Part shown: positions 16,367 through 64,000 of the stretch, piece after piece
How positions within the stretch are numbered: the first letter of the stretch is position 1
Layout of the letters: each line of letters opens with the position of its first letter
Assembly (NCBI GenBank): GCA_965223325.1
Contig: CBDCWI010000001.1
Coordinates: forward strand, 1,664,001-1,728,000
DNA: 64,000 nt
Reading direction: 5' to 3'
From: Candidatus Multivoradales bacterium
GTDB taxonomy: Bacteria > Acidobacteriota > Thermoanaerobaculia > Multivoradales > Multivoraceae
The notes under the pieces: generated by a model
What the model was told of the DNA's origin: nothing
Databases searched by the model: none
The model's input: the letters and a program-made list of their open reading frames with translations, nothing else
Made by a program: the position numbers and the translations under genes

Positions 16367-18142
16367 CTACGCTCCCGCCAGAATGGTCTTGGGGTTGTCA
16401 CACACCCGCAGGGCCTCTTCTTTGGTGATCTTCTTTTCTTTCATCAAGTTGACCAGCGACTGATCGAGCAGGCACATCCCGTGTTTGCGACCGCTCTGCA
16501 TGAGACCGGGTATCTGGAAGGTCTTCTCTTCGCGAATCAGATTCGCGATTGCCATGTTGAGCATCAGCACTTCGACTGCTGGCACACGGCCCGATCCGTC
16601 TGCCTTGACCACGAGGCGCTGCGACACGACGGCGCGCAGAGATTCCGACACCATGGTGCGAATCTGTGACTGCTCCTCGGGTGGGAAGGCACCGATCAAA
16701 CGACTCACCGTCGCGATCGCGGACAGCGTGTGCATGGTGCCGAGAACGAGATGGCCGGTCTCGGCCGCGGTCAGGGCGAGCGAGATCGTCTCGTGGTCGC
16801 GTAGCTCGCCAATCACGATCACATCCGGGTCTTCGCGCAGGGCACCCCGGAGGGCGCGAGCGAAGGAACCGGTGTGATTGTTGACCTGGCGTTGGTTGAC
16901 CAGACAGACCTTTGACGGGTGGATGTATTCGATGGGATCTTCGACCGTCAGAATGTGGTCGGGTTTGTCTTGATTGACAAGGTCGACCACCGCCGCCAGC
17001 GTTGAAGACTTGCCGCAACCGGTGGGCCCCGTAAAAAGCACCATGCCCTGGTGAAAGTGCGCCAGCTTGGCGAGCGACTCCGGCAACCCGAGCTCCTCGA
17101 GGCTCGGTGGCGCGGGCGGCACGATACGGAAGACGATGTCGGTCCCGTTCTGCTGCCGGTAGGCGTTGCAGCGGAGGCGCGCCTTGCCGGCCACGGTATG
17201 CGAGAAGTCGACCTGACCCGTCTCGGCCATTGCCTGATGGAGACTGGGTGGCAGGATCGCATCGAGAATGCGTTGGTTCTGGGCGGTTTCGGAAACGCGA
17301 CCCTCGAGATCGACCAGCGTGCCGTTGACCCGCACCTTGACCGGCACGGTGGCATGCAAGTGAAGATCGCTGGCGCCACGCTCGACGGCGATGCCGATGA
17401 GCTCGTCGAGTTCGGGAGCCGCCGACGATTCCCAGTCGCCATGTCCTACTGTTTTCCATTTCTGCTGGATCGGTGCGGCGGCAGCGGCAGCCGCCGGAGC
17501 CTGGGCGGGCTGGACCGGCTGCGGTGCCGCGACCGGCTGGGCGACAGCCGCCGGCGGATCCGGGGCAGCGGTCGAGACAGGTTCCGTGGGCTCGGCGACG
17601 GGTATCGGTTGCGCGGCCGGCGCCACATCGACCACCTGAATCGGCTCGGCGAGCGCCGCCGGCTCGACGGCAAGCGGCACGGCCTCGAGAGGCGGAGCGG
17701 GCGCCGCCTCGGCGACCGCCGCGTCCATCGCAATGGTGTCGACGGTGGAATCCACAGGCGCAGCCACAGCCATCAACGGCTCGGTCGACGGCGGTTCCAT
17801 CACCGGAACCTCGGCCGCCAGTGGCACGGCGCTCGGCTGCGTATCCGCCAGGCTCGCGGTTTCAAGAGCCATCGTCTCCACCATCTCCGGCGGAACCTCC
17901 GCCAGGGTCGGTGCCGGCGGTTCTTTGCCTTCTTCCCCCTGCTTCTCGAGGACCCAGGCGGCCTGCTCCATGGTCAGAGCGCCGGCATCGACCAGCAGCG
18001 CACCAATGCGACGCGTCGGATCCTCCATCTGTGCCATGAGGGCGTCTGACAATTGATCACTGGTGCAAAGACCGTTCTCGACCGCAATCCGTCCGAACAA
18101 GAGCGCGTCTTCGTCGAGGGCAAAGGGACTCGCTTGACTCAT
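16367..18142 (-). CDS. pilT: PilT-family ATPase with N-terminal MshEN-like domain and Pro/Ala-rich linker
   Basis: GPTGCGKSST, LREDPD, GELRD, ANLIRE; two 24-aa MshEN-like motifs at the N-terminus. Confidence 0.88.
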   Translation of the reverse strand: MSQASPFALDEDALLFGRIAVENGLCTSDQLSDALMAQMEDPTRRIGALLVDAGALTMEQAAWVLEKQGEEGKEPPAPTLAEVPPEMVETMALETASLADTQPSAVPLAAEVPVMEPPSTEPLMAVAAPVDSTVDTIAMDAAVAEAAPAPPLEAVPLAVEPAALAEPIQVVDVAPAAQPIPVAEPTEPVSTAAPDPPAAVAQPVAAPQPVQPAQAPAAAAAAAPIQQKWKTVGHGDWESSAAPELDELIGIAVERGASDLHLHATVPVKVRVNGTLVDLEGRVSETAQNQRILDAILPPSLHQAMAETGQVDFSHTVAGKARLRCNAYRQQNGTDIVFRIVPPAPPSLEELGLPESLAKLAHFHQGMVLFTGPTGCGKSSTLAAVVDLVNQDKPDHILTVEDPIEYIHPSKVCLVNQRQVNNHTGSFARALRGALREDPDVIVIGELRDHETISLALTAAETGHLVLGTMHTLSAIATVSRLIGAFPPEEQSQIRTMVSESLRAVVSQRLVVKADGSGRVPAVEVLMLNMAIANLIREEKTFQIPGLMQSGRKHGMCLLDQSLVNLMKEKKITKEEALRVCDNPKTILAGA

Positions 18143-18266
18143 GAGAAATGACCTGGCTGAAGGGAGGTGAAGGTCTGAGAACCGGCCATACACGGCCGTG
18201 GCGATTCTACCAGCAAAACTAGTATTTACAAGTAAACCGGTAATCCATCGCCCTTCCCACCCACCA

Positions 18267-18365
18267 CCCGGGCAATCCCCGGGCGTTTCCCGGGCGCTTC
18301 CCGGGCGTCTCCCGGGCGTCTCCCGGGCGTCTCCCGGGCGTTTCCCGGGCGTCTCCCGGGCGATC
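18267..18365. repeat. Nine tandem 11-bp units, consensus CCCGGGCGTCT
   Basis: Units start at 18267, 18278, ... 18355; intergenic between divergent genes. Confidence 0.92.
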
Positions 18366-18437
18366 GACTGGGGTGATTCTTGGGATTCTCGGGGGGTTCC
18401 CTCGAAGGGGCGGGCGAGGCGCTATATTGCGCCCCTT

Positions 18438-19481
18438 ATGCCTCTACTTCGTGGTTCGGTCTCGATGACCCGCTTCAACGTTGCCAGCCTCCCCGACGAG
18501 CCTGACTTCGATGGTCAGGCGTGGAAGGAAATTGGCCCGGGCTCGCAGCTGCGTGAATCGATTGGCTTCGTGCCCTTCGAGCCTGGGGCACCCTGGCTGG
18601 CGGGGATCCGTCGTTTCGCGGCGCGTGTTCGCATCGACACCCTGAAGCCCGATCCGACAGGGGTGCGCGAGCGGTTTCAGGATCTCTGCCGGCTCGAGCT
18701 CGAGCACGGCGGTCTCGATTTCGTCGGCCCGAAGAAACGACGTGAGCTCAAGAACCTCGCCGAGGAGGAACTGCTGCTGCGCGCCGCGCCACGCTCGCGC
18801 ATCATCGAGACAGTAATCGATCGCGGTGTGCTCTACGTCGGTTCGACCGCCAACCTTCATCTCGGCAAGATTATTCAGCTCTACCGGCGCGCGGGCGTCG
18901 TAGCCGACTTCAAGACCCCGTGGATCGACCACGGCCAGGCCGAGGCAACCAGCGAGATTCTCGAGATCCACGACCCGGTGCAGTCGGCGCACGGGGCGCA
19001 CTTCCTGCGTGATCTGGTCGATGACCCGGAGATCAAGTTCGAGCCAATCGGTGGCTACGTTCGCCTGCAGAATCGACACGCCCGCATCTCGTTGACTGGC
19101 GCTGTCCTGCGCGACCTCTACCGCTTCCTCGAAGAAGACGCGGAGCTGTTGGCGGCCAAGTTGGTCACCGCCGAGCACACCTTTCGCTTCGACGCCCTAC
19201 CTTTTCGGATTTCAGGCTGCAACATCGAAAACAGCCGCCACGCCCACTGGATCGAGCAGCTCGACGAACGCCTCGAGGGAATCGAGTCGGTGTGGGAGGT
19301 CCTGGAAAACCGCTACAAGGAGCATCGCGGCATCGGCAAGAAGCGCAAGAGCCCGGTCGCGGACCTGCGAAAGATCAGAGAAGCACACCTTTCACAGCAG
19401 ACAGAACGCGAGCCCGGCATCGATGACGAACCGCCGCCTCTGCCCCCCAGAACCGAAAGCGACAGCGAAGTGCCCTTCTAG
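18438..19481 (+). CDS. RdgC-like recombination-associated protein
   Basis: LRGSVSMTRF, RVRIDT, KKRRELK..EEELLLRAAP pattern resembles RdgC family; TATATT upstream. Confidence 0.6.
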   Translation: MPLLRGSVSMTRFNVASLPDEPDFDGQAWKEIGPGSQLRESIGFVPFEPGAPWLAGIRRFAARVRIDTLKPDPTGVRERFQDLCRLELEHGGLDFVGPKKRRELKNLAEEELLLRAAPRSRIIETVIDRGVLYVGSTANLHLGKIIQLYRRAGVVADFKTPWIDHGQAEATSEILEIHDPVQSAHGAHFLRDLVDDPEIKFEPIGGYVRLQNRHARISLTGAVLRDLYRFLEEDAELLAAKLVTAEHTFRFDALPFRISGCNIENSRHAHWIEQLDERLEGIESVWEVLENRYKEHRGIGKKRKSPVADLRKIREAHLSQQTEREPGIDDEPPPLPPRTESDSEVPF

Positions 19482-53446: not shown

Positions 53447-54748
53447 GTGTTTGAACTCTCCTTCACCGCGCGCAACGTTCTGATTGGCGCCAGCCTGCTT
53501 GGTGCAACCAGCGGGTTGGTGGGTTGCTTTGCACTCTTGAGGCGCCAGAGCCTGCTCGGAGACGCACTGGCGCACACGGCGCTGCCGGGAGTGTGTATCG
53601 CCTTTCTCTTGACCCAGACCAAAGCGTCACTGCCTCTCCTTCTGGGCGCCGCCGTCGCCGGTGTGCTCGGCGCGATCATCATCAGCTCGTTGTCGCGTCT
53701 CGAGCGGGTGACCGAGGACTCGGCCATCGGAATCATCCTGTCGGTGTTCTTCGGTTTCGGCATCGTTCTGTTGACGATCATTCAGCGCCTGCCGAGCGGC
53801 AACCAGAGCGGGCTCGACAAGTACCTGTTCGGCCAGGCCGCCACCCTGGTTCCCAAAGACCTGGTGATCCTGGCGGGCGTCTCACTCACCGTGCTCGCGC
53901 TCACCGTCATCTTCTTCAAAGAGCTCAAGATGCTCGCCTTCGACCGCGACTTCGGCGAGAGCCTCGGCTTTCGCATGCGGGGCCTCGAGCTCTTGCAGAT
54001 CGTGATGTTGGTGCTGGTCGTGGTGGTGGGGCTTCAGATGGTCGGCGTGGTCTTGATTGTGGCCGCACTCATCACTCCGGCTGCGGCGGCCCGCCAATGG
54101 ACCGACCGGCTGGCCGTCATGCTTCTGATTGCCGCGGGCATCGGCGCGATCTCAGGGTCGATCGGAGCGATGGTCTCGGCCCAGGTCTCGAAAGTCCCCA
54201 CCGGGCCAGTCATCGTCCTGGTCGCCAGCGCCTTTCTGATCGTCTCGCTCCTGCTCGCGCCGCGGCGCGGTCTGGTCTGGGCCTGGCTGCGCCAACGACG
54301 GGTGTCTCGGCGCATCCAACGCGAGAACCTGCTCAAGGATCTCTGGCTGTGGTGCGAACGCGCCAACGCTGACACCGACGCCCGGGTGCCCTGGTCGTAC
54401 CTGCGCGGCGGCCGCGGCCAGACGGGTCGGCGCATCGACCGCATCGCCCGAGGCCTGGCGCGCGACGATCACGTCGAAACCGACGCGCGCAGCGTGTGGC
54501 TGACGGCCAGCGGTGCCGAACATGCACAGCAGCTGGTCCGCAAGCATCGCTTGTGGGAGCTCTATCTGACCCGCCGTCTCGAGCTGGCCAGCGACCACGT
54601 CCACCGCGACGCCGACGCCATGGAACACACCCTCACCGACGAAGCTGTGGCGCGCATCGAAGAACTCCTCGACTACCCAACCCACGACCCACACGGGCAG
54701 ATCATTCCGCAGGCCGACAAAAAGAGCGCGCTGGAGCAAACGGCATGA
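53447..54748 (+). CDS. troC: Metal ABC permease fused to a C-terminal DtxR-like domain
   Basis: GDALAH..LPG permease; RKHRLWELYL, HRDADAMEH, PTHDPHG. Confidence 0.87.
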   Translation: MFELSFTARNVLIGASLLGATSGLVGCFALLRRQSLLGDALAHTALPGVCIAFLLTQTKASLPLLLGAAVAGVLGAIIISSLSRLERVTEDSAIGIILSVFFGFGIVLLTIIQRLPSGNQSGLDKYLFGQAATLVPKDLVILAGVSLTVLALTVIFFKELKMLAFDRDFGESLGFRMRGLELLQIVMLVLVVVVGLQMVGVVLIVAALITPAAAARQWTDRLAVMLLIAAGIGAISGSIGAMVSAQVSKVPTGPVIVLVASAFLIVSLLLAPRRGLVWAWLRQRRVSRRIQRENLLKDLWLWCERANADTDARVPWSYLRGGRGQTGRRIDRIARGLARDDHVETDARSVWLTASGAEHAQQLVRKHRLWELYLTRRLELASDHVHRDADAMEHTLTDEAVARIEELLDYPTHDPHGQIIPQADKKSALEQTA

Positions 54749-56287: not shown

Positions 56288-56432
56288 TCGACTCTCCAGA
56301 TTGTCAGTTGGGGTGAACCCATCCACCTTAGCGTGTGTGTCACGTCCGGTGCTACGACGGACGACTGTGGCCACACGGTGGTCCATCCAGTGGGCTCAGA
56401 GTGGTGAACCAGGACAGAGGGCGAACGCAGCC

Positions 56433-56462
56433 AGAAAGGCCGGGAGGCGGTGACCTCCCGGC
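56433..56462 (-). terminator. Intrinsic terminator-like hairpin upstream of the lipoprotein gene
   Basis: GCCGGGAGG-TCACCG-CCTCCCGGC then CTTTCT. Confidence 0.55.
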
Positions 56463-56920
56463 GTTGAAACCCATGAGCTTCTTCACTCACGAGGGCGCTG
56501 TAGTGCGCTTGGTGAGTGCTTTCCGGAAACGGGTTCTGGGTGTTACAGAGCCCTGTGCCACGGGCGACGATGGAGGTGAAGTTCGCTGGGCCAGTTGACG
56601 ATTCAATATTCAAGTTGTGTTGTCGTGTTCTCTTCTATTGTTTGTTTCGACTGAGGCCGACGGCCGCATCTTCCGCTACGGCGCCTTCGGCGAGCTCCTC
56701 TGCGCCAGCTCGGTCTTCCCCGACAACCCGTGCGTTCAAGACGACGGGGAGGGGGACGCACCGGGAGGTGTGGTGGCGGAGCTGCGCCTGTCGGGCGGAA
56801 TGCCGAGGTCCATGAGTGGCGAAGGCGAGGGTTCGGCCCTTGGGATGACGCATCGAGGTAGTGGAGGAGGCCGACGGAGTGCTCCGGAAACGCGGTGCGC
56901 CGCCCAGTACGGCGCTGCCG

Positions 56921-56957
56921 TCAGAACTTACCCCCCCGTGCGCGGCATCGCCGTGCG
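56921..56957 (+). repeat. REP-like hairpin motif, copy 1
   Basis: TCAGAACTTACCCCC-CCGT-GCGCGGCATCGCCGTGCG; matches reverse complement of 63145-63183. Confidence 0.72.
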
Positions 56958-57084
56958 CGCGCTCGCGCTAAAGGCGTACCGCCGCGGGCTCGCTACGCGT
57001 TTCCGTAGGACCTTGGGATGAATACAGAATCTGACGCCGTCACCGGAAAGAGAAAACAAGCGATTCCGGTAGTACAGAATGGGT

Positions 57085-57630
57085 AGCAGGTCAGGCTTGC
57101 TGTAAGACACCAGCCCTTGATACCAACTCGCGGCACCTAGACGAACCGTGTCTGGGCGCAGCTCGCTGGTTAGGCCGCCGACGGCCAAGGGCTTCTGTTA
57201 GCCTAGCCAAGTCGCTCTCCCGCGCGGTCTCGTCGCAGAGACCCCTGGCTCCGACTCGCCGGTCGTCGCCCGCTGGAGCCCTGTTGATCGACCCCTCCTT
57301 CGATGCGCACAGACCTCTCGAACTAGATCGACCCTCACGACCTCGCACGCGGCCCGGCTGCGTTCGGTCGTCGTGAAGCCCTAACCGCGCTCCGCCGAAC
57401 GACGGTGGTTTCGGTGTGGGCCGTCGCGAAGCGGAAATCCGCGGAGCGCACATCGAGAGAAGAACCCCGAGAGCCTCACCAAAGGTCTCGGGAACCGCCG
57501 CGTCTGAGCCCAGCGGGTGGCGCTCCCAGGAGAGCACCACTTGCACCAGGACTGACGCGCTTTCAAGAGCTGCATCGTTCCTAGCGCGACCAAACGCCTT
57601 TGGTGCGAGTGGCTGGTGAGGAGATTCAGC
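57085..57630 (+). promoter_or_regulatory. Long structured 5' leader (putative attenuator) of the ABC-F gene
   Basis: Many nested stems plus alternative pairings that cover the RBS. Confidence 0.55.
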
Positions 57631-59373
57631 ATGGCGAAACGTCGAGCGACGGTTCGTGACGAGGGTCGTCGAGTGGTCGCCCAGGGTTCAGAGTCGAAGG
57701 AGCGCAGACCTGGGGCGGCCGGCCAGGTTCCGCTGCTTCAGGCGGTGGACCTCGCGTTCCATCCGTCACAGGTTCATCGACAGGGGCCTGTTTTTGAAGA
57801 GATCAACATGGCGTTGCACTTGGCGGAGGTGGTGGCGTTGGCTGGGCCGAATGGCTGTGGCAAGACAACGCTCCTGCGCTGCCTCGCGGGTGCCCTCGAG
57901 CCCGGCGAGTCCGCAGGCCTGCGCGGCACGATCATCAGGAATTGTGATCAGGGTGCGCTTGCCTGGTTGCGCCAGGCGGGCCGCGAGTCTTCGCACACCG
58001 CGAGTCGCGAGACGGTGTGGTCGCGAATGCTCGCAGCGCAGGAAGATCTCGCCGAGATCCGTCGCCGCCTGGACGACGGGGACTGGTCGGCGCTCGATGC
58101 CTGGGAGGGAGCTTCGGGCTACGCGCGCGAACGCGAGCTCGAGGTGATGGCCGAGGCCTTTGGTGTCGAGGACCTGCTCGGCCGCGCGGTAGGTGAACTC
58201 TCGCCAGGGCAGCTGCAACGGGTCGATCTGGTCGCGGCACTCGTCTACGCCGACTCTCGCCCGCGCAGTGTGCTGCTTCTCGACGAGCCGCTCAATCATC
58301 TAGACCTCGATGGGATCCGGTTGGTGGAGGAGGCGCTTCTCGATCCGCGGCGCCGCGAGAGAGCGGCGGTGCTCCTGGTGTCGCACGATCGGGAGCTCCT
58401 CGATCGGGTGGCTGACCGGACGCTCTTGTTTGCCGATGGCGAGTTGCTTTCCGTCGCCGGTGGCTACAGCGCCGCCCGGGAGCATCAGGGACTTCTGGTT
58501 CGGGCCCAGGAACACGAGGCCGAGGAGAGTCGTCGCCGCATCGCCAAGCTCGAGAAGGAGTACCGGCAGCGTGCGGGTTGGGCAGAGAAGAAGGAGCGTT
58601 CGAAGAGCGGGGCCGGTGCTTCCAAGCCATTCATCGCGAAGCGGGCCAAGAAGCTGGCGCGCCGAGCCAAGGACGTCGAGCGTCGACATCAGCGCGCTCT
58701 CGAGGACCTCTCGAAGACGGCGCGACGTCGCGCTCGACCGGTCGTCCTGCGGCGGGCGGAGTACGAGGTGACCCAACGGGTGGTCGCTCGCTTCGAGGCG
58801 GTCGAGGTCTCCTACGGAGAGCACTGCGTCTACTCGCAACTCGATCTGGTTCTGCGTAGCCGCGATCGCTGCGCTCTGCTCGGACCGAACGGTTCAGGCA
58901 AGTCGACCCTGCTTCGTCTCCTTCTGGGCGAAGTCGAGGCCGCAGCCGGCAGTGCCTACGTCAACCACGCTGTAGGTATCGGCTACCTTGCGCAGGACGC
59001 TGGCGAACCGAGCGATATGAAAGACGGCCGACTGCTCGAGACCTTCGCTGACCTCGATGTCGCGGAGTCTGAGGTGAGACGGCACCTAGGGTCGGTCGGC
59101 CTCAGGCGTGAGCGGGTCTTGCAGACAGTAGGTGCGCTCAGCCCTGGTGAGCGCATGCGTGCTGCCCTCGTTCGGCTGTTGCTCGAGCGCTCCGAGTTCC
59201 TGGTCCTCGACGAGCCGACCAACCATCTCGACACCGAGTCGATCGAGGTCCTGGAAGCGTTTCTTCGAGAGTTTCCGGGTGGCTTCCTGCTGGTGAGCCA
59301 CGACCGTCGCTTGATCTCGGCACTGGTCGAGAGGGTGCTAGTGGTCTCGGACGGACGGCTTGCGACGGTCTAG
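57631..59373 (+). CDS. ABC-F protein, Lsa-like ribosomal protection subfamily candidate
   Basis: Two NBDs (GPNGCGKT/LSPGQ/DEPLNHLD; GPNGSGKS/LSPGE/DEPTNHLD), no TM, extended basic linker; GAGGAG RBS. Confidence 0.85.
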   Translation: MAKRRATVRDEGRRVVAQGSESKERRPGAAGQVPLLQAVDLAFHPSQVHRQGPVFEEINMALHLAEVVALAGPNGCGKTTLLRCLAGALEPGESAGLRGTIIRNCDQGALAWLRQAGRESSHTASRETVWSRMLAAQEDLAEIRRRLDDGDWSALDAWEGASGYARERELEVMAEAFGVEDLLGRAVGELSPGQLQRVDLVAALVYADSRPRSVLLLDEPLNHLDLDGIRLVEEALLDPRRRERAAVLLVSHDRELLDRVADRTLLFADGELLSVAGGYSAAREHQGLLVRAQEHEAEESRRRIAKLEKEYRQRAGWAEKKERSKSGAGASKPFIAKRAKKLARRAKDVERRHQRALEDLSKTARRRARPVVLRRAEYEVTQRVVARFEAVEVSYGEHCVYSQLDLVLRSRDRCALLGPNGSGKSTLLRLLLGEVEAAAGSAYVNHAVGIGYLAQDAGEPSDMKDGRLLETFADLDVAESEVRRHLGSVGLRRERVLQTVGALSPGERMRAALVRLLLERSEFLVLDEPTNHLDTESIEVLEAFLREFPGGFLLVSHDRRLISALVERVLVVSDGRLATV

Positions 59374-59600
59374 TGCCCTCAGGAGGCTGCAGGGTCGGGT
59401 TCGATCTCGGGCTCGGCTTTAGCAAGTAGAGCAGTGGGCATGCCCGCTTTGTCGAAAGACACCGCGCTCTCCGGGAAGAGGCCTCGGTGGACAAGGAAGA
59501 TGGTACCGAACGACAGCGGCATGACAGGAAGGTGGGGAATGGAAGTAGCAGAACGGTGCGGCCACGCGGCATGATTGTTGAGATCGAGCAATCCAACCTA

Positions 59601-59838
59601 GCTTCGGATCCTCGGTGACTGGAAGTCCCCAACTGGGATGGCCCATACGACTCGTTCCCGGGCACGCGACGGAGGACCTGGCTCGTCGTTTCCGTTACGT
59701 CCTGGCTCAGGGCTGCGAGGCTGGGCTCGTGTCCTCGGCACGCAAGTGGCCTGGGGTGAGCCAGGCCCAGGTGCTCTGGTCGGGGAGTTTCGAGCTCAAA
59801 GGCATCTGGATCGATCGTTCGGCACTTCGGCGTGCTAG
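59601..59838 (+). pseudogene. Degraded fragment of a RAYT/Y1 transposase
   Basis: DLARRFRYVLAQGCEAGLVSSARKWPGVS..WIDRSALRRA is highly similar to the 63324 ORF; frameshifted upstream, HUH region missing. Confidence 0.82.
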
Positions 59839-60185
59839 CCCGACGACTCGGCACCCTCCTCGGCCTTCTGCCCCGAGACTCTCTTCACCCTTTGTCCGTA
59901 CAGAATCGATGTGGTCAAGCACTGATATCGTGCTGCACCGATACTGTGCTAAATCAGCCAGGGCTTCGAGTACGACGACCTGGGAGCGACCACCAGAATC
60001 CACTACCCCCGGTGCGAAACGGGCGGCTACGCGACACCCTGCACCAACGATCCCGCTCCCGCCCGCAGCGTGAGCTTCGAGTGCGGCCGCGGCTTCCTGC
60101 GCAAAGTCCCGGGCTACATCAACTCCGGCGGCTACCGGAACCAGGCTCTCTGGCTCTTTCGCCGTCTTAGCCGCCGCGAGCGACA

Positions 60186-60222
60186 AGAAAAAGGGCCGCG
60201 CCCGAAGGCGCGGCCCTTTTCT
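60186..60222. terminator. Bidirectional intrinsic terminator after the TonB receptor gene
   Basis: AAAAGGGCCGCGCC-CGAA-GGCGCGGCCCTTTT. Confidence 0.88.
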
Positions 60223-60237
60223 CTCGGGTCGTTTCCG

Positions 60238-63145
60238 TCAGAAACGGATCTCGGCTCCGAAACGTGCCTGCCAGAGCGAACGGTTCTCGAGCAGGTCCGT
60301 CAAGCCCCGGTCCGTGAAGCTCTCATAGACGAACTGGCCGTCGTCGTTGACCGACGAGCGAACGACTTGCGGCGTGAAGAAGAAGGCGTCGTACACCTTG
60401 CCGTAGTCGTCGTCAATGAAGTTGCCCACGTTGTAGAGCCGCACGAAGAATCGCCCGTTCAACTTGCTGAAGCCCACCGGGAAGTCCTGGTAGACGCCGA
60501 GGTCGAAGCGGTTGCTCCAACGGGCATGCTGACCGTTGCGCTCGGTGAAGCCCGGCGAGAGACCCTCGCGCGAAACCCAGTCGAAGAAGTCGTTGGTCGC
60601 GAACCCGTCCGCGAAGACTACGTTCGGATCGTCGACGCCCGTCGGCACGTTGAGGAGGTGACGACCGAAGAAGCCGTCGCCCTCTAGATCACCCGACCCC
60701 ATCGCGAAGCTCTGCGGTTGACCTTCCTGGAGGTAGGCGAACACCGTGAAGCGAGTCTCGAAACCCTCGATGAAGTCCCGACCGATGCTGGCCCGCAGGC
60801 TGAAGCGGTTGGGCACCTCATAGTTCGAGGTTGCCGGGCGCGGGTTGTTGATGTCGAGAGTCGCCAGGTTGTCGAAGTTCGACCCGGCGACCGAGGAGGT
60901 CATCGGGCTGATGTCTTCCGAATCCGTGTAGGCGTAGCCGAGGGAGGCGTCCAGGCCCCAGTCCCAGCGCTTGGTCAACAGAACCGAGAGCACGTCGGAC
61001 GACGCGTCGAAGCTCGAGTTGGTCAGCATGAAGTTATCCCGACCGTTGACGTAGTCGTAGATGGGCGTTCCAGCCCGGGTGGTGCCCACGATCTCCTGCG
61101 ACAGGTCGACGTAGTAGGCCGAGTCGACCAGCTCGGTGTGCATGTAGTCGAAGTCCACCTGGTACCCGCTATCGAAGCGATAGGTGAGACCGGTGGAGTA
61201 CTTCCACTCCGAGGGCTGCTCATAGTTCGGGTCGATGAGAACCAGGAAGCTGGTGCTGGCACTGTCGGGCGGTGGTGTTACCGACCGTGTCGAACAGGCT
61301 CTGGGGAATGTCGTATCCGGGCCGGCTGCCGGTCAACGGAATCGAACCATCGAGTACCGAGCCGGTCGCACCGAAGTTGTTCAGACGGACCTGAACGTTG
61401 GTGAGGCCATCGTTACTCCACGCGTTCGAGATCCACACGTTGGGGTTACCGCCGGAGTACCGACCGACGCTACCGCGTACCGAGAGGCTGGGCCGCGGGT
61501 TCCAGGTCAGACCGAGTCGAGGCATGAGCAGATCGACACCGTCGATGTTGGCGTCGTTGCGAAGGCCACCGTTGGCATCGGTGAACGCCTGGTTGAAGTT
61601 CGGGCGATCGCTACTGTCGAAGAACTCGTAACGCAGACCGGCCACCAACGTCACGTCGACGTTGTCGAAGAAGACTTCGTCCTGGATGTAGATGGAGTTC
61701 AGCGTGTTGGCGAAGTTCGCCGCCGCGTCATCAGGGTTGTTCGTTCCACCACCGCTACCGTAGTAGATGCGGCTCGGACGCCCCAGCTCGTAGCGATCGA
61801 TACCCGACAGCCCGCAGGCGGGGTTGTCGAGTCGACCCTGCGCTGTCAGGCCAGCACAGAAGGCAGGGTTCCCCGTCGAGTCATCGAAGAAGTCGTACTC
61901 GCCACCGCGGGAGTGCTGCACGAACTGGTTGAAGATGGTGGTCTCCTTGGACTCGTAGCCAGCGGTGATGACGTTGTTGCCCAGCAGGAACTGGCCCGAG
62001 AGCTTGGCGTAGTCGGTCTCGGTGTTGAGCCGGTTGGCCTGGCGGGAGTCGTCGGCACCGAGATAGACGGTGTTGAATCCAACGCTGATCTGGAAGTCGG
62101 CAAAGTCCGGCGGACCCACCGTGACCTGCGAGTCATCCATCGTGTTGGCACTGAGGAAGAACTCGGTCGAGAAGTTGTTGGTCCACTGTGAGGTGATCTT
62201 CCCGGTGACCGTCTCGGATTCGGCACCCTTCACATAGAAGTGGTTGGCGAACTCGAACTCGTCCGGATCACCGTCGGAATCGCGATCCTGGAAGCCGTCG
62301 TAGTAGTTGTAGATCAACGCGGCGTTGTGCTTGGAATTGATGTTCCAATCCAGCCGGCCCATTGGCTTGTCCTCTTCCTGACCACCGTCACCCGGCTGCC
62401 CGCCGGGGTCGTAGGCGTAGACATCGTTGGCAACCGAAACGATGCGGTCGTAGTCAGTCTGCGAGAGCCAATCACGCTCCACTCCGATTCCCGAACCGTC
62501 GAAGCCTCGTGCGAGGAAACGCGGCGAGTCGGTGTTCTCGAAAGCCGAGAAGAAGTGCAGCCGATCCTCCACCAGGCGCCCACCGAGGGTGAACCCGGCC
62601 TTGCGCGAGTTGAACGGTGGCGTTCCGAAGTCACGCGAGTCGCCACCGAGCGAGTCACCGCGCATGTCGTCGTCAGTGTGCTCGTAGAACGCGTTGCCGT
62701 GGAACTCGTTCGAGCCCGACTTGGTGACTGCGTTGATGGTGCAGGCTGAGAAGCCGCCGTAGGTCACGTCGGCAGGAGCGAGCTCGACCGCGAGCTGGGC
62801 GATCGCATCGTAGGGGAAGGGCATGCCGACCGCGGTCGAGTAGCCATTGGAGTTGAGGCCGAACTCGTCGTTGGCGCCAACACCGTCCAGGGTGACGCTG
62901 TTGAACCGGGGATGTTTACCGGCGCAGTTGACCTCGAAGCCGTCGTCCTCGTTGTCGATGTTGACCCGGGGATCGATGCCGTAGACATCGGTGATGTCGC
63001 GGTTGAAGGCGACAGACGTCTCCATCTTGAAGCTGTCGAAGGTGGCCGCGGGACCGGTCGCCACTTCGACGAAATCGCGCGATGCCACGACCGTCACCGC
63101 CTCCGTGAGGGTCGTGTCACGGGTGATGGCCAGGTTGTAGATGTC
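60238..63145 (-). pseudogene. Oar-type TonB-dependent receptor, 5'-truncated and frameshifted
   Basis: Plug NSVTLDG, INAVTKSGSNEFHG, C-terminal EIRF; one extra base at 61267-61269 splits ORFs 61220..63217 and 60238..61158; no signal peptide. Confidence 0.85.
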
Positions 63146-63183
63146 GCGCGGCGATGCCGCGCCCAGTCGGGGGTAAGTTTTGA
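63145..63183 (-). repeat. REP-like hairpin motif, copy 2, upstream of the RAYT
   Basis: Minus strand TCAAAACTTACCCCC-GACTGG-GCGCGGCATCGCCGCGCG. Confidence 0.72.
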
Positions 63184-63323
63184 GCCGAAGTCGTGGTGCA
63201 GAGCCAGGCCTCGCCACCGACCTGACGTGTAGCCCGATTCACAAATGACAGTTGGTCGATGGCGAGGGTCATCCGCTAAGATGAGGCTCCCTGCTAGGCA
63301 TCGATGGCTCCGTGCGAAGAGTC

Positions 63324-64000
63324 ATGGCCCATCAACTGAGGTATGTCCCCACCGACGGAAGCGGTTGGGGAGTCGTCGAAGTGACGGTGCGCATCGTCAA
63401 TGGGTTCTTCCTGTTGGCGCCATCGTCCCACCTACGCGAACTGCTCATCGGGATCATCGGCCGCGCGCAGCGAAAGACCGAAATTCGGATCCACGCCCTG
63501 GACTACCAGGTCAATCACGCTCATCTATTGCTGAGCGCTCGCGACGCCCAGCAGCTGGCGGATTTCATGCGGCGTATTCAGCACCAGACGAGTGTGGAAC
63601 TGCGGATCCTGCGAGGGTGGAAGGGGCCGAAGTGGGAAGGACCGTACAAAACGTCGTTCCCCGGTCACGCAAAGAAGGACCTCTGCCGTCGTTTCCGCTA
63701 CATCCTTGCCCAGGGCTGCAAGGCGGGGTTGGTGTCCTCTCCTCGGAAGTGGCCAGGAGTGTCGGTGGCGGAGGCGCTCTGGTCAGGGACCTTCGAGCTC
63801 GAGGGCACCTGGGTCGACCGTTCGGCCCTTCGTCGTGCCCGTTTCTCGAAGGCGGGGCGTCGCTTGAGCGAGAAGGACTTCTCGAGCCGCGAGACGGTCG
63901 TTTTGTCGAAGCTTCCGTGCTTCGAGGACCTCCCTGACGAGGCATACTTCGACTGGTCCCGCGGCATGATTGTAGAGATCGAGGACGAGACCCGGGCGCG
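63324..64000 (+). mobile_element. REP-associated tyrosine transposase (RAYT)/IS200-like Y1 HUH transposase, partial (runs off right edge)
   Basis: Absent from ORF track. Manual translation MAHQLRYVP..VEVTVR..IHALDYQVNHAHLLL..FMR..WEGPY..RYILAQGCKAGLVSSPRKWPGVS; HUH motif and catalytic Tyr, no stop to 64000. Confidence 0.85.

Follow-up and report, generated by a model that had tools for sequence, protein, structure and literature searches.

A two-block hairpin motif between a Y1/HUH nuclease gene and a truncated receptor gene in an Acidobacteriota contig: a candidate end of a multicopy mobile element

Motif, receptor junction and Y1/HUH gene

The window examined here is a stretch of 64,000 nucleotides from contig CBDCWI010000001.1 of an Acidobacteriota assembly (Candidatus Multivoradales bacterium). 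Its right edge carries the first part of a gene for a Y1/HUH protein, separated by a short two-block motif from a truncated gene for a TonB-dependent receptor. A second copy of the motif lies 6.2 kb further to the left, with an intact ABC-F gene and a decayed second Y1 gene between the two copies (Table 1). A preliminary description, made from the letters of the window, had read these features as a RAYT-type transposase whose motif, likened to repetitive extragenic palindromes (REPs), brackets a 6.2-kb cargo. Our analysis indicates instead that the receptor gene was disrupted at the edge of a Y1 element, and that the motif is, on balance, the terminal module of this element and not the boundary of a cargo.

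Table 1. Features of the motif-bearing part of the window, in window positions.
Feature	Position	Strand	Remarks
Motif copy 1	56921-56957	+	TCAGAACTTACCCCC-CCGT-GCGCGGCATCGCCGTGCG; opposite orientation to copy 2; solo
Gene-free stretch upstream of the ABC-F gene	56958..57630	+	"structured leader" of the preliminary description; context
Intact ABC-F ATPase gene	57631..59373	+	two ABC_tran domains (Pfam); context, not element
Decayed, rearranged second Y1 gene	59560..60010	+	diverged remnant with frame breaks
TonB-dependent receptor pseudogene, Oar / CarboxypepD_reg type	60241..63144	-	Pfam OMP_b-brl_4
Motif copy 2	63183-63145	-	TCAAAACTTACCCCC-GACTGG-GCGCGGCATCGCCGCGCG; probable terminal module of the Y1 element
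Untranslated stretch, end module to Y1 start codon	63184..63323	+	140 nt
Y1/HUH nuclease gene, 5' two thirds	63324..64000	+	residues 1-225 of ~323; ends at window edge

Much of what the preliminary description had reported about the locus was borne out, namely the positions, block identities and spacers of the motif, the absence of GTAG from it, the Y1 open reading frame (ORF) 140 nt beyond copy 2, and the decayed Y1 copy and broken receptor gene between the two motif copies. Each copy combines three parts, namely a 15-nt box richer in A/T (TCARAACTTACCCCC), a spacer of 4 nt (copy 1) or 6 nt (copy 2), and a GC block (GCGCGGCATCGCCGYGCG), with identities of 14/15 in the box and 17/18 in the GC block. 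The joined two-block pattern occurred twice in the 64 kb, against 0.00 expected (100 shuffles). With up to 2 mismatches the 15-mer box alone gave 2 matches against 0.10 expected, a number reached by 0/100 shuffles; the 18-mer GC block alone, with up to 3 mismatches, was not significant (2 matches against 1.40 expected, with 41/100 shuffles reaching 2). Both copies lie less than 7 kb from Y1 sequences, and no third copy was found in the remaining 57 kb of the window, even at 2-3 mismatches. The similarity between the copies ends at the edges of ~39 nt, beyond which the surrounding DNA of both is unrelated (blastn); the untranslated stretch next to copy 2 likewise shares no similarity with the DNA beside copy 1. 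The GC content ranges from 0.59 to 0.69, with no step at either copy.

The GC block of copy 2 folds into a hairpin (GCGCGGC-ATC-GCCGCGC; 7-bp stem, 3-nt loop), and the minimum-energy fold contains it (z -2.1). The corresponding stem of copy 1 has a G.T mismatch, owing to a C-to-T change, and is unused in the minimum-energy fold (z -0.6). GTAG was found on neither strand of the motif. Its complement contains GGGGTAAG, which agrees at 7/8 positions with the TIRtron sequence GGGGWSAS, a match not significant alone. A homolog search gave no match for a 51-residue ORF that crosses the motif, reading outward from the leader of the Y1 gene. The hairpin side of copy 2 abuts the truncated receptor gene, and its box side points towards the Y1 gene.

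Full-length homologs of the receptor are ~1065-1070 residues long and carry an N-terminal CarboxypepD_reg domain (PF13620). The pseudogene lacks codons 1 to ~99, which encode the signal peptide and this domain. When the full-length homolog P0020 was compared with the window by tblastn, residues 92-728 aligned to 63169-61268 and residues 729-1070 to 61266-60241 in another frame, which places a single frameshift at 61266-61268. Residues 1-91 had no match anywhere in the window at E<=1 (tblastn, three full-length homologs). Homology to P0020 begins with D-I-Y-N-L at nt 63145, the base next to the stem foot, at codon ~100; this position comes from protein alignment and holds to within about 6 nt. 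In 13/13 homologs the residues V-A precede the conserved D/E-(I/T)-(Y/F)-N, and in the window this place is taken by a hairpin-encoded P-R (PRD). We conclude that the receptor pseudogene is host DNA disrupted at the edge of the Y1 element.

Receptor homology thus sets in directly at the foot of the copy 2 hairpin, which makes the hairpin side of the motif the outer boundary of the Y1-bearing DNA. With the same polarity at copy 1, the inside of that copy lies to its left, so that the 6.2 kb lies outside both copies. The cut in the receptor gene at the hairpin foot therefore removes both the bracketed cargo and the gene capture that had been proposed: the hairpin (outer) sides face the segment, nothing Y1-like lies in the 1.4 kb to the left of copy 1, and the two copies have only 39 nt in common.

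The Y1 gene starts with the ATG at 63324, 140 nt after 63183, and no sigma-70-like promoter was found in the untranslated stretch before it. Its product matched Pfam Y1_Tnp (PF01797) with 28.8 bits against a cut-off of 23; 16/19 family members matched this model at E<=0.01. The HUH motif reads NHAHLLL at H65/H67, and the catalytic tyrosine Y126 lies in RYILAQGCKAGLV, 59 residues from the HUH motif. The best-scoring NCBIfam model was that for RAYT (NF047646), yet the scores of the window ORF (34.4 bits) and of P0001 (32.7 bits), a database protein of 323 residues to which the window protein is 97% identical, were far under the curated cut-off of 80; the IS200 model (NF033573, cut-off 55) gave 19.6 bits for the window ORF. 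At E<=0.01, the RAYT model was matched by 19/19 family members and the IS200 model by 6/19.

An AlphaFold model of P0001 was made from a 19-sequence alignment (pLDDT 83.6, pTM 0.85), and in this model Y126 is carried by a predicted helix at residues 117-128. In Foldseek, the first ~160 residues of the model had E. coli TnpA-REP (4er8_A) as the best PDB fold (E 9e-5, TM 0.67 over 159 columns), followed by the TnpA proteins of IS608 and ISDra2, with a probability of 1.00 to 4er8, 2a6o and 2xma. The sequence profile reversed this order, with ISDra2 as the best PDB match (E 5e-4) and 4er8 at E 0.07. Residues ~160-310 were well folded in the model but matched no PDB fold and none of the named Atlas clusters. 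Thus, the window ORF is a Y1/HUH protein, both by sequence and by fold.

The protein family and its copies

The receptor ORF of the window corresponds to P0019 in the protein database, where it is listed with a longest contig of 2,144,090 bp. In the cluster table, four Y1 clusters list the same 2,144,090-bp longest contig: P0001 (97% identical to the window protein; 9 members at >=90%), P0002 and P0003 (66-67% identical; 1 member each) and P0006 (65% identical; 4 members). Read from these table columns alone, the source genome would hold at least four Y1 paralog lineages, possibly about 15 genes. A tblastn search of P0001 against plasmids gave no match.

A second, decayed Y1 copy lies 3.5 kb from the intact one. 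Nucleotides 59602-60010 of this remnant correspond to residues ~93-235 with frame breaks, and tblastn gave 77% identity over 60 residues to P0001 and 47% over 122 residues to P0005. The protein encoded at 59657-59836 is 78% identical to the intact copy over 60 residues (RYVLAQGCEAGLV against RYILAQGCKAGLV); the remnant ORF had no Pfam match. The remnant is also permuted: a 29-nt piece at 59560-59588 (residues ~212-220), which matches 63955-63983 at 90% (blastn), sits 13 nt upstream of the part that matches 63600-63838 (75% over 239 nt, blastn). A deletion across two tandem copies could have produced this arrangement.

Across 1.84 billion sequences, the profile search of the family found 14,811 representatives when the threshold was E<=1e-3; at E<=1e-30 there were 1,133, counted at 50% identity. 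Nearly all of the best 150 profile matches were full-length, at ~300-325 residues. The Atlas clusters of the family, from Acidobacteriota, Bdellovibrionota and Myxococcota, are named "hypothetical protein" or "transposase family protein". This is therefore a large family of ~310-residue proteins that has no informative name in the sources examined.

For the family alignment, 141 of 166 sequences were used, and the 25 outside 280-340 residues were left out. H65 was conserved in 141/141 sequences, H67 in 125/141 and Y126 in 140/141, and the N-terminal threonine T21 was kept in 106/141. The family consensus is S-N-H-[YF]-H-L-L-L round the HUH motif, with a W-x-R-R-Y segment in addition, and R-[LF]-R-Y-[LIV]-L-[AS]-[QHN]-G-[VC]-K-E-G-L-V round the catalytic tyrosine; a conserved F-P-x-G-x-F-P-P stands near the C-terminus. 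The position four residues after the tyrosine (Y+4) was Q in 66, H in 54 and N in 20 members, and the window copy has Q130; at Y+5, G occurred in 122 members, S in 16 and P in none. The window protein reads YILAQGCKAG and retains the [VC]-K-x-G part, with NP absent. The earlier remark that the tyrosine motif departs from the usual NP form proved informative, with proline at Y+5 in 0/141 members. Judged by length and key motifs against Table 1 of Quentin et al. (2018, PMC6006769), the family matches none of the 12 TnpA-Y1 subclasses given there. The C-terminal half is conserved, spans ~170 residues and has no known relative.

Relatives of P0001 were sought in a contig scan that gave 38 pattern matches, of which three were confirmed, all in one distant Acidobacteriota metagenome-assembled genome (MAG). 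Their proteins are 35-36% identical to P0001. Compared with one another as DNA, the three copies match at 85-88% along ~1.0-1.1 kb, a stretch that opens ~40 nt upstream of the start codon and extends ~200 nt beyond the gene. Arrays of short repeats lie to either side of each copy, and in them a CGCAAGTCCCTGGCACC box is followed by GGCACCTT..CGCG units. Within 62 kb of this MAG, 24/26 occurrences of GGCACCTT were at most ~350 nt away from the genes; they occur to the left and to the right, each on the gene strand. The repeats are direct, as at the ends of IS200/IS605 elements, and not inverted as in REPtrons/TIRtrons. The arrays fold no better than shuffles (z -0.4 to +1.3), the window motif is absent from the three MAG loci, and the MAG repeats are unrelated to it in sequence. 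In this MAG, the result shows that family members are multicopy and have lineage-specific flanking repeats; it does not extend to the function of the window motif. A link between the family and a private flanking motif is plausible.

Two further observations were made at these loci. One MAG copy (L002 10001-11284) has lost its stop codon, and its 427-residue frame runs into the downstream repeat array. At L002 9800-10003, ~60 nt of the 5' leader (GGATTCTGGATTCTTGCTTGAGCTAT...) are duplicated upstream.

The segment between the motif copies and the remainder of the window

The product of the intact ABC-F gene had been described as resistance-like. It matched the ribo_prot_ABC_F model over model positions 16-497 of 499 with 336.8 bits against a cut-off of 380, and the Sal, Lsa, Vga and Msr models with 194-219 bits against cut-offs of 680-750. 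The assignment to ABC-F stands, and the resistance label is not supported: by its scores, the predicted protein is an ATPase below every curated resistance-type cut-off. The "structured leader" before this gene is weakly supported, since the ~670-nt upstream region folds with z -2.8 and 0/20 shuffles were as stable, but no Rfam match was obtained, either across the window at gathering thresholds or at E<=1 over 56300-57700.

A gap of 1.25 kb without genes (56387-57630), unusual for this dense window, separates two divergent genes and holds motif copy 1. No Pfam match at E<=0.1 was obtained in 12 stop-to-stop frames of the gap, and no promoter-like site was found in it. A pseudogene or Y1 remnant in the gap was excluded by the lack of any Pfam, blastn or tblastn signal. 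The DNA to the left of copy 1 comprises 530 nt free of genes, an ORF for a small lipoprotein-like product and the genes of a Mn/Zn ABC transporter, and no Y1 gene or remnant was detected in its first 1.4 kb (tblastn, blastn, Pfam). Copy 1 is therefore a solo module. A foreign origin of the segment was considered and rejected, as the GC content of 0.59-0.69 runs without a step.

The remainder of the window holds ilv/leu genes, helicases, two-component systems and metal transport genes, as in ordinary chromosome, and no other recombinase was found there. Several side observations concern this DNA. Just 3' of the receptor pseudogene stop, at 60195-60230, a GC-rich palindrome stands between A and T runs (aaaaagggccgcgcccgaaggcgcggcccttttct); it resembles a bidirectional terminator, and the terminator scan did not list it. 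An operon with ZnuA, an ABC ATPase and two permeases includes a fusion gene at 53447-54745, in which an ABC-3 permease of Mn/Zn type (residues 9-269) is joined to a DtxR-type metal-binding/dimerisation domain (Fe_dep_repr_C, residues 353-421, E 3e-24). About nine tandem 11-nt units (CCCGGGCG plus 3 variable nt; TRF score 105-140) occupy 18267-18365, a little beyond the 5' end of a T2SSE-type ATPase gene on the minus strand (16370-18193); they lie inside a mechanically called ORF (18198-19478), and their period is not a multiple of 3. The window start (11-64) carries a 15-nt tandem repeat with 3.6 copies and 89% matches.

Mobile element or domesticated system

As the best explanation of these data, we lean, by a modest degree, towards a multicopy Y1 element that is mobile, or was until recently, with the motif as its terminal module; this element would be RAYT-like in kind, behave as an insertion sequence (IS) and lie in a small zone of decay. 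The right edge of the window would then be the left end of a single-gene element of ~1.3-1.5 kb that encodes a Y1/HUH single-stranded DNA nuclease-transposase of ~320 residues, with the 39-nt box-plus-hairpin as its terminal recognition module. This Y1 copy would have landed in, or become joined to, the TonB-dependent receptor gene at codon ~100, with the frameshift arising later, and an older, diverged Y1 copy would have decayed 3.5 kb away. Copy 1 at 56921 may be a solo end, either the relic of a lost copy or a module mobilised alone, and the 6.2 kb between the motifs would be chromosome between ends and not cargo.

IS608, ISDra2 and E. coli TnpA-REP, as described in PMC6006769, PMC8266576 and PMC3479197, offer a model for the likely mechanism. 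The N-terminal domain would bind the GC hairpin in single-stranded DNA, and H65/H67, together with the Q, H or N at Y+4 (Q130 in the window copy), would hold the metal. Y126 would cut beside the hairpin and form a 5'-phosphotyrosine link, and strand transfer would move the unit. The C-terminal half may bind the conserved box, which stands 4-6 nt from the stem; alternatively, the box may act as a guide or cleavage determinant. IS200-type TnpA works as a dimer and TnpA-REP as a monomer, and the family enzyme may be of either kind.

Several points weigh against this element. Just one end of one copy is in view, as the 3' third of the gene and the far flank lie beyond the window, and the junction with the receptor was set by protein alignment, to about +/-6 nt. 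Copy 1 has no adjoining Y1 sequence and would equally fit a dispersed REP-like repeat; its stem is imperfect and folds no better than shuffles. The number of copies is taken from one column of the cluster table. In the MAG, the flanking repeats are unrelated to the window motif and likewise fold no better than shuffles.

The main rival is a domesticated system of the REPtron/TIRtron kind, in which the Y1 gene is stationary and its enzyme spreads short REP- or TIR-like repeats, copy 1 being one of them. We regard this as a serious possibility but a doubtful one. Several findings suit it: TnpA-REP (PDB 4ER8, class 2) is the best structural match of the Y1/HUH fold, the NCBIfam RAYT model was matched by all 19 members, and the K-x-G-L-V segment after the catalytic tyrosine and the N-terminal threonine are retained in the family. 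The former is RAYT-specific by the motif definition in PMC2817692, and the RAYT motif after the tyrosine is given as NP(L/V)(R/K)xG there and in Table 1 of PMC6006769. In addition, a GC hairpin lies beside the gene, as at RAYTs, and copy 1 stands alone. Di Nocera (2013, PMC3733652) describes non-GTAG inverted repeats round RAYT-like genes, with moderately abundant solo copies, and an Acidobacteria-specific TIRtron/TIRYT group. As in the TIRtrons of that source, the gene here is RAYT-like and the repeats flanking the family are unrelated to GTAG REPs; some TIRtron repeats are partly self-complementary and some are solo.

Other features do not fit such a system. RAYT hairpins have a GTAG or GT[AG]G foot, which the window motif lacks, and where RAYTs read Y-x3-NP the family has Y-x3-[QHN]-G. 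At ~320 residues, the protein exceeds the ~150-240 of RAYTs, and it carries the conserved 170-residue C-terminal half. No more motif copies occur in 57 kb. Around a RAYT gene, two or more REPs stand in inverted orientation; the window covers the upstream flank, and the one motif copy there would be compatible with inverted as well as direct repeats. Long terminal inverted repeats unrelated to REPs bound the TIRYT gene, whereas the MAG relatives have direct repeats, and most TIRYTs fall in subclass 2.1 (YIELNP, ~238 residues), which the window protein does not match, as far as PMC3733652 and PMC6006769 describe them. In the account of Bertels et al. (2017, PMC5581495), RAYTs are typically single-copy, and copy number and near-identical duplicates separate IS elements from them; the family is multicopy on one contig (9+1+1+4 members), with one cluster of 9 near-identical members and a remnant in the window. 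Moreover, the block of gene plus motif breaks a conserved receptor gene, as if the whole unit had moved. The name "RAYT-type" of the preliminary description is thus too narrow, given the multicopy state on its own contig, a score of 34 bits against 80, and a protein of twice the RAYT length. The proposal of an undescribed RAYT/REP subfamily holds in so far as this is an unclassified Y1 lineage with a non-GTAG hairpin motif, and the RAYT label in it is too specific.

The family resembles the IS200/IS605 TnpA proteins (IS608 and ISDra2; subclass 1.1) in some respects. It is multicopy, a hairpin lies at the unit end, Gln stands at Y+4 in the window copy, the sequence profile ranks ISDra2 first in the PDB, and the MAG repeats lie on one strand on both sides. 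IS200 copies are near-identical, and the copies here may be so too, judging at the protein level by the 97% identity to P0001 and its 9-member cluster at >=90%. On the other hand, the family protein is twice as long (323 residues against ~150), the IS200 model gave 19.6 bits against 55, and no tnpB partner was seen. IS200/IS605 elements have subterminal hairpins at both ends on one strand and a fixed target tetranucleotide. In IS608, the hairpin sits 10-19 nt inside the element end, and the preliminary description names TTAC as the left cleavage tetramer. At the one visible end of the window element, the hairpin is at the very edge, at the junction, and the junction lies across the hairpin from the TTAC of the motif. 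The texts consulted lent this role of TTAC no support (0 occurrences in PMC6006769).

Among the TnpA-Y1 groups of Quentin et al. (2018, PMC6006769), the tyrosine motif is Y-x3-Q in class 1 (IS200-type), Y-x3-NP in class 2 (RAYT-type) and Y-x4-Q in the rare class 3. Class 3 is described as an IS/REPtron intermediate that occurs in Acidobacteria and Planctomycetes. Its genomes hold several closely related copies each, its tyrosine motif is of the Gln type, and the structures at its flanks are atypical, weak and free of GTAG. In these respects it resembles the present family. It differs in its length of ~178 residues, its Y-x4-Q (YV[VI]xEQ) and NHVH motifs, and its flanking units (CCGAGCCGCGACCGT.AGGGAGCGG, with a CnGA foot), which, as given in part 7 of supplement 2 of that work, resemble neither the window motif nor the MAG repeats. 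Subclass 2.3 shares a median length of 325 residues, NHYH, WE, more than 5 diverged copies per genome, the lack of REPs and a long C-terminal tail. It is described there with YVDLNP and a 55-residue insertion between beta3 and alphaC (core 172 residues); there is no such insertion here, where 59 residues separate the HUH motif from the tyrosine.

It is improbable that the motif is a pre-existing host repeat next to which the Y1 element inserts, without being part of it. A solo copy without an element does exist, and REPs are known to serve some IS elements as insertion sites (ISPpu9, described in PMC8450116). Copy 2, however, occupies the place of receptor coding sequence and is not native there, so that this reading would need an earlier insertion into the gene.

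The composite or cargo transposon of the preliminary description, in which the motif pair brackets a 6.2-kb segment mobilised or captured by a RAYT, is very improbable. The two copies are indeed mutually inverted around the segment, but their outer sides face it, no element lies to the left of copy 1, and the right-hand gene of the segment belongs to the host and is truncated, with full-length homologs elsewhere; these three findings led us to rule it out. Further, the intact Y1 gene lies outside the motif pair, and neither copy shows a GC step. Least probable of all is an inversion, which inverted repeats can mediate, between the two copies that flipped the segment and broke the receptor gene: it predicts the first ~99 codons of the receptor reading into copy 1 from the left, and it was ruled out because no receptor N-terminus was found there or elsewhere in the window (tblastn, three homologs, E<=1), with no Pfam match in any frame to the left of copy 1.

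A broader proposal is offered tentatively, with clearly less assurance than the element itself. The ~310-residue clade may be an autonomous IS family built on a RAYT-type, not an IS200-type, Y1 nuclease, intermediate between IS200/IS605 and the domesticated REP systems, in which the C-terminal half reads a lineage-specific box and ends can persist or spread solo. For annotation, the practical point is that nothing in these data marks the ABC-F gene as mobile cargo or as a resistance gene. Y1/HUH enzymes span selfish elements (IS200/IS605) and domesticated systems (RAYT/REP), and the transition between the two is an open question according to PMC6006769 and PMC8266576. The present family joins RAYT-like sequence features with IS-like copy number, an apparent insertion of the whole unit and a well-folded extra half of 170 residues, and its end motif beside a clean gene-disruption junction is a concrete substrate for a cleavage assay.

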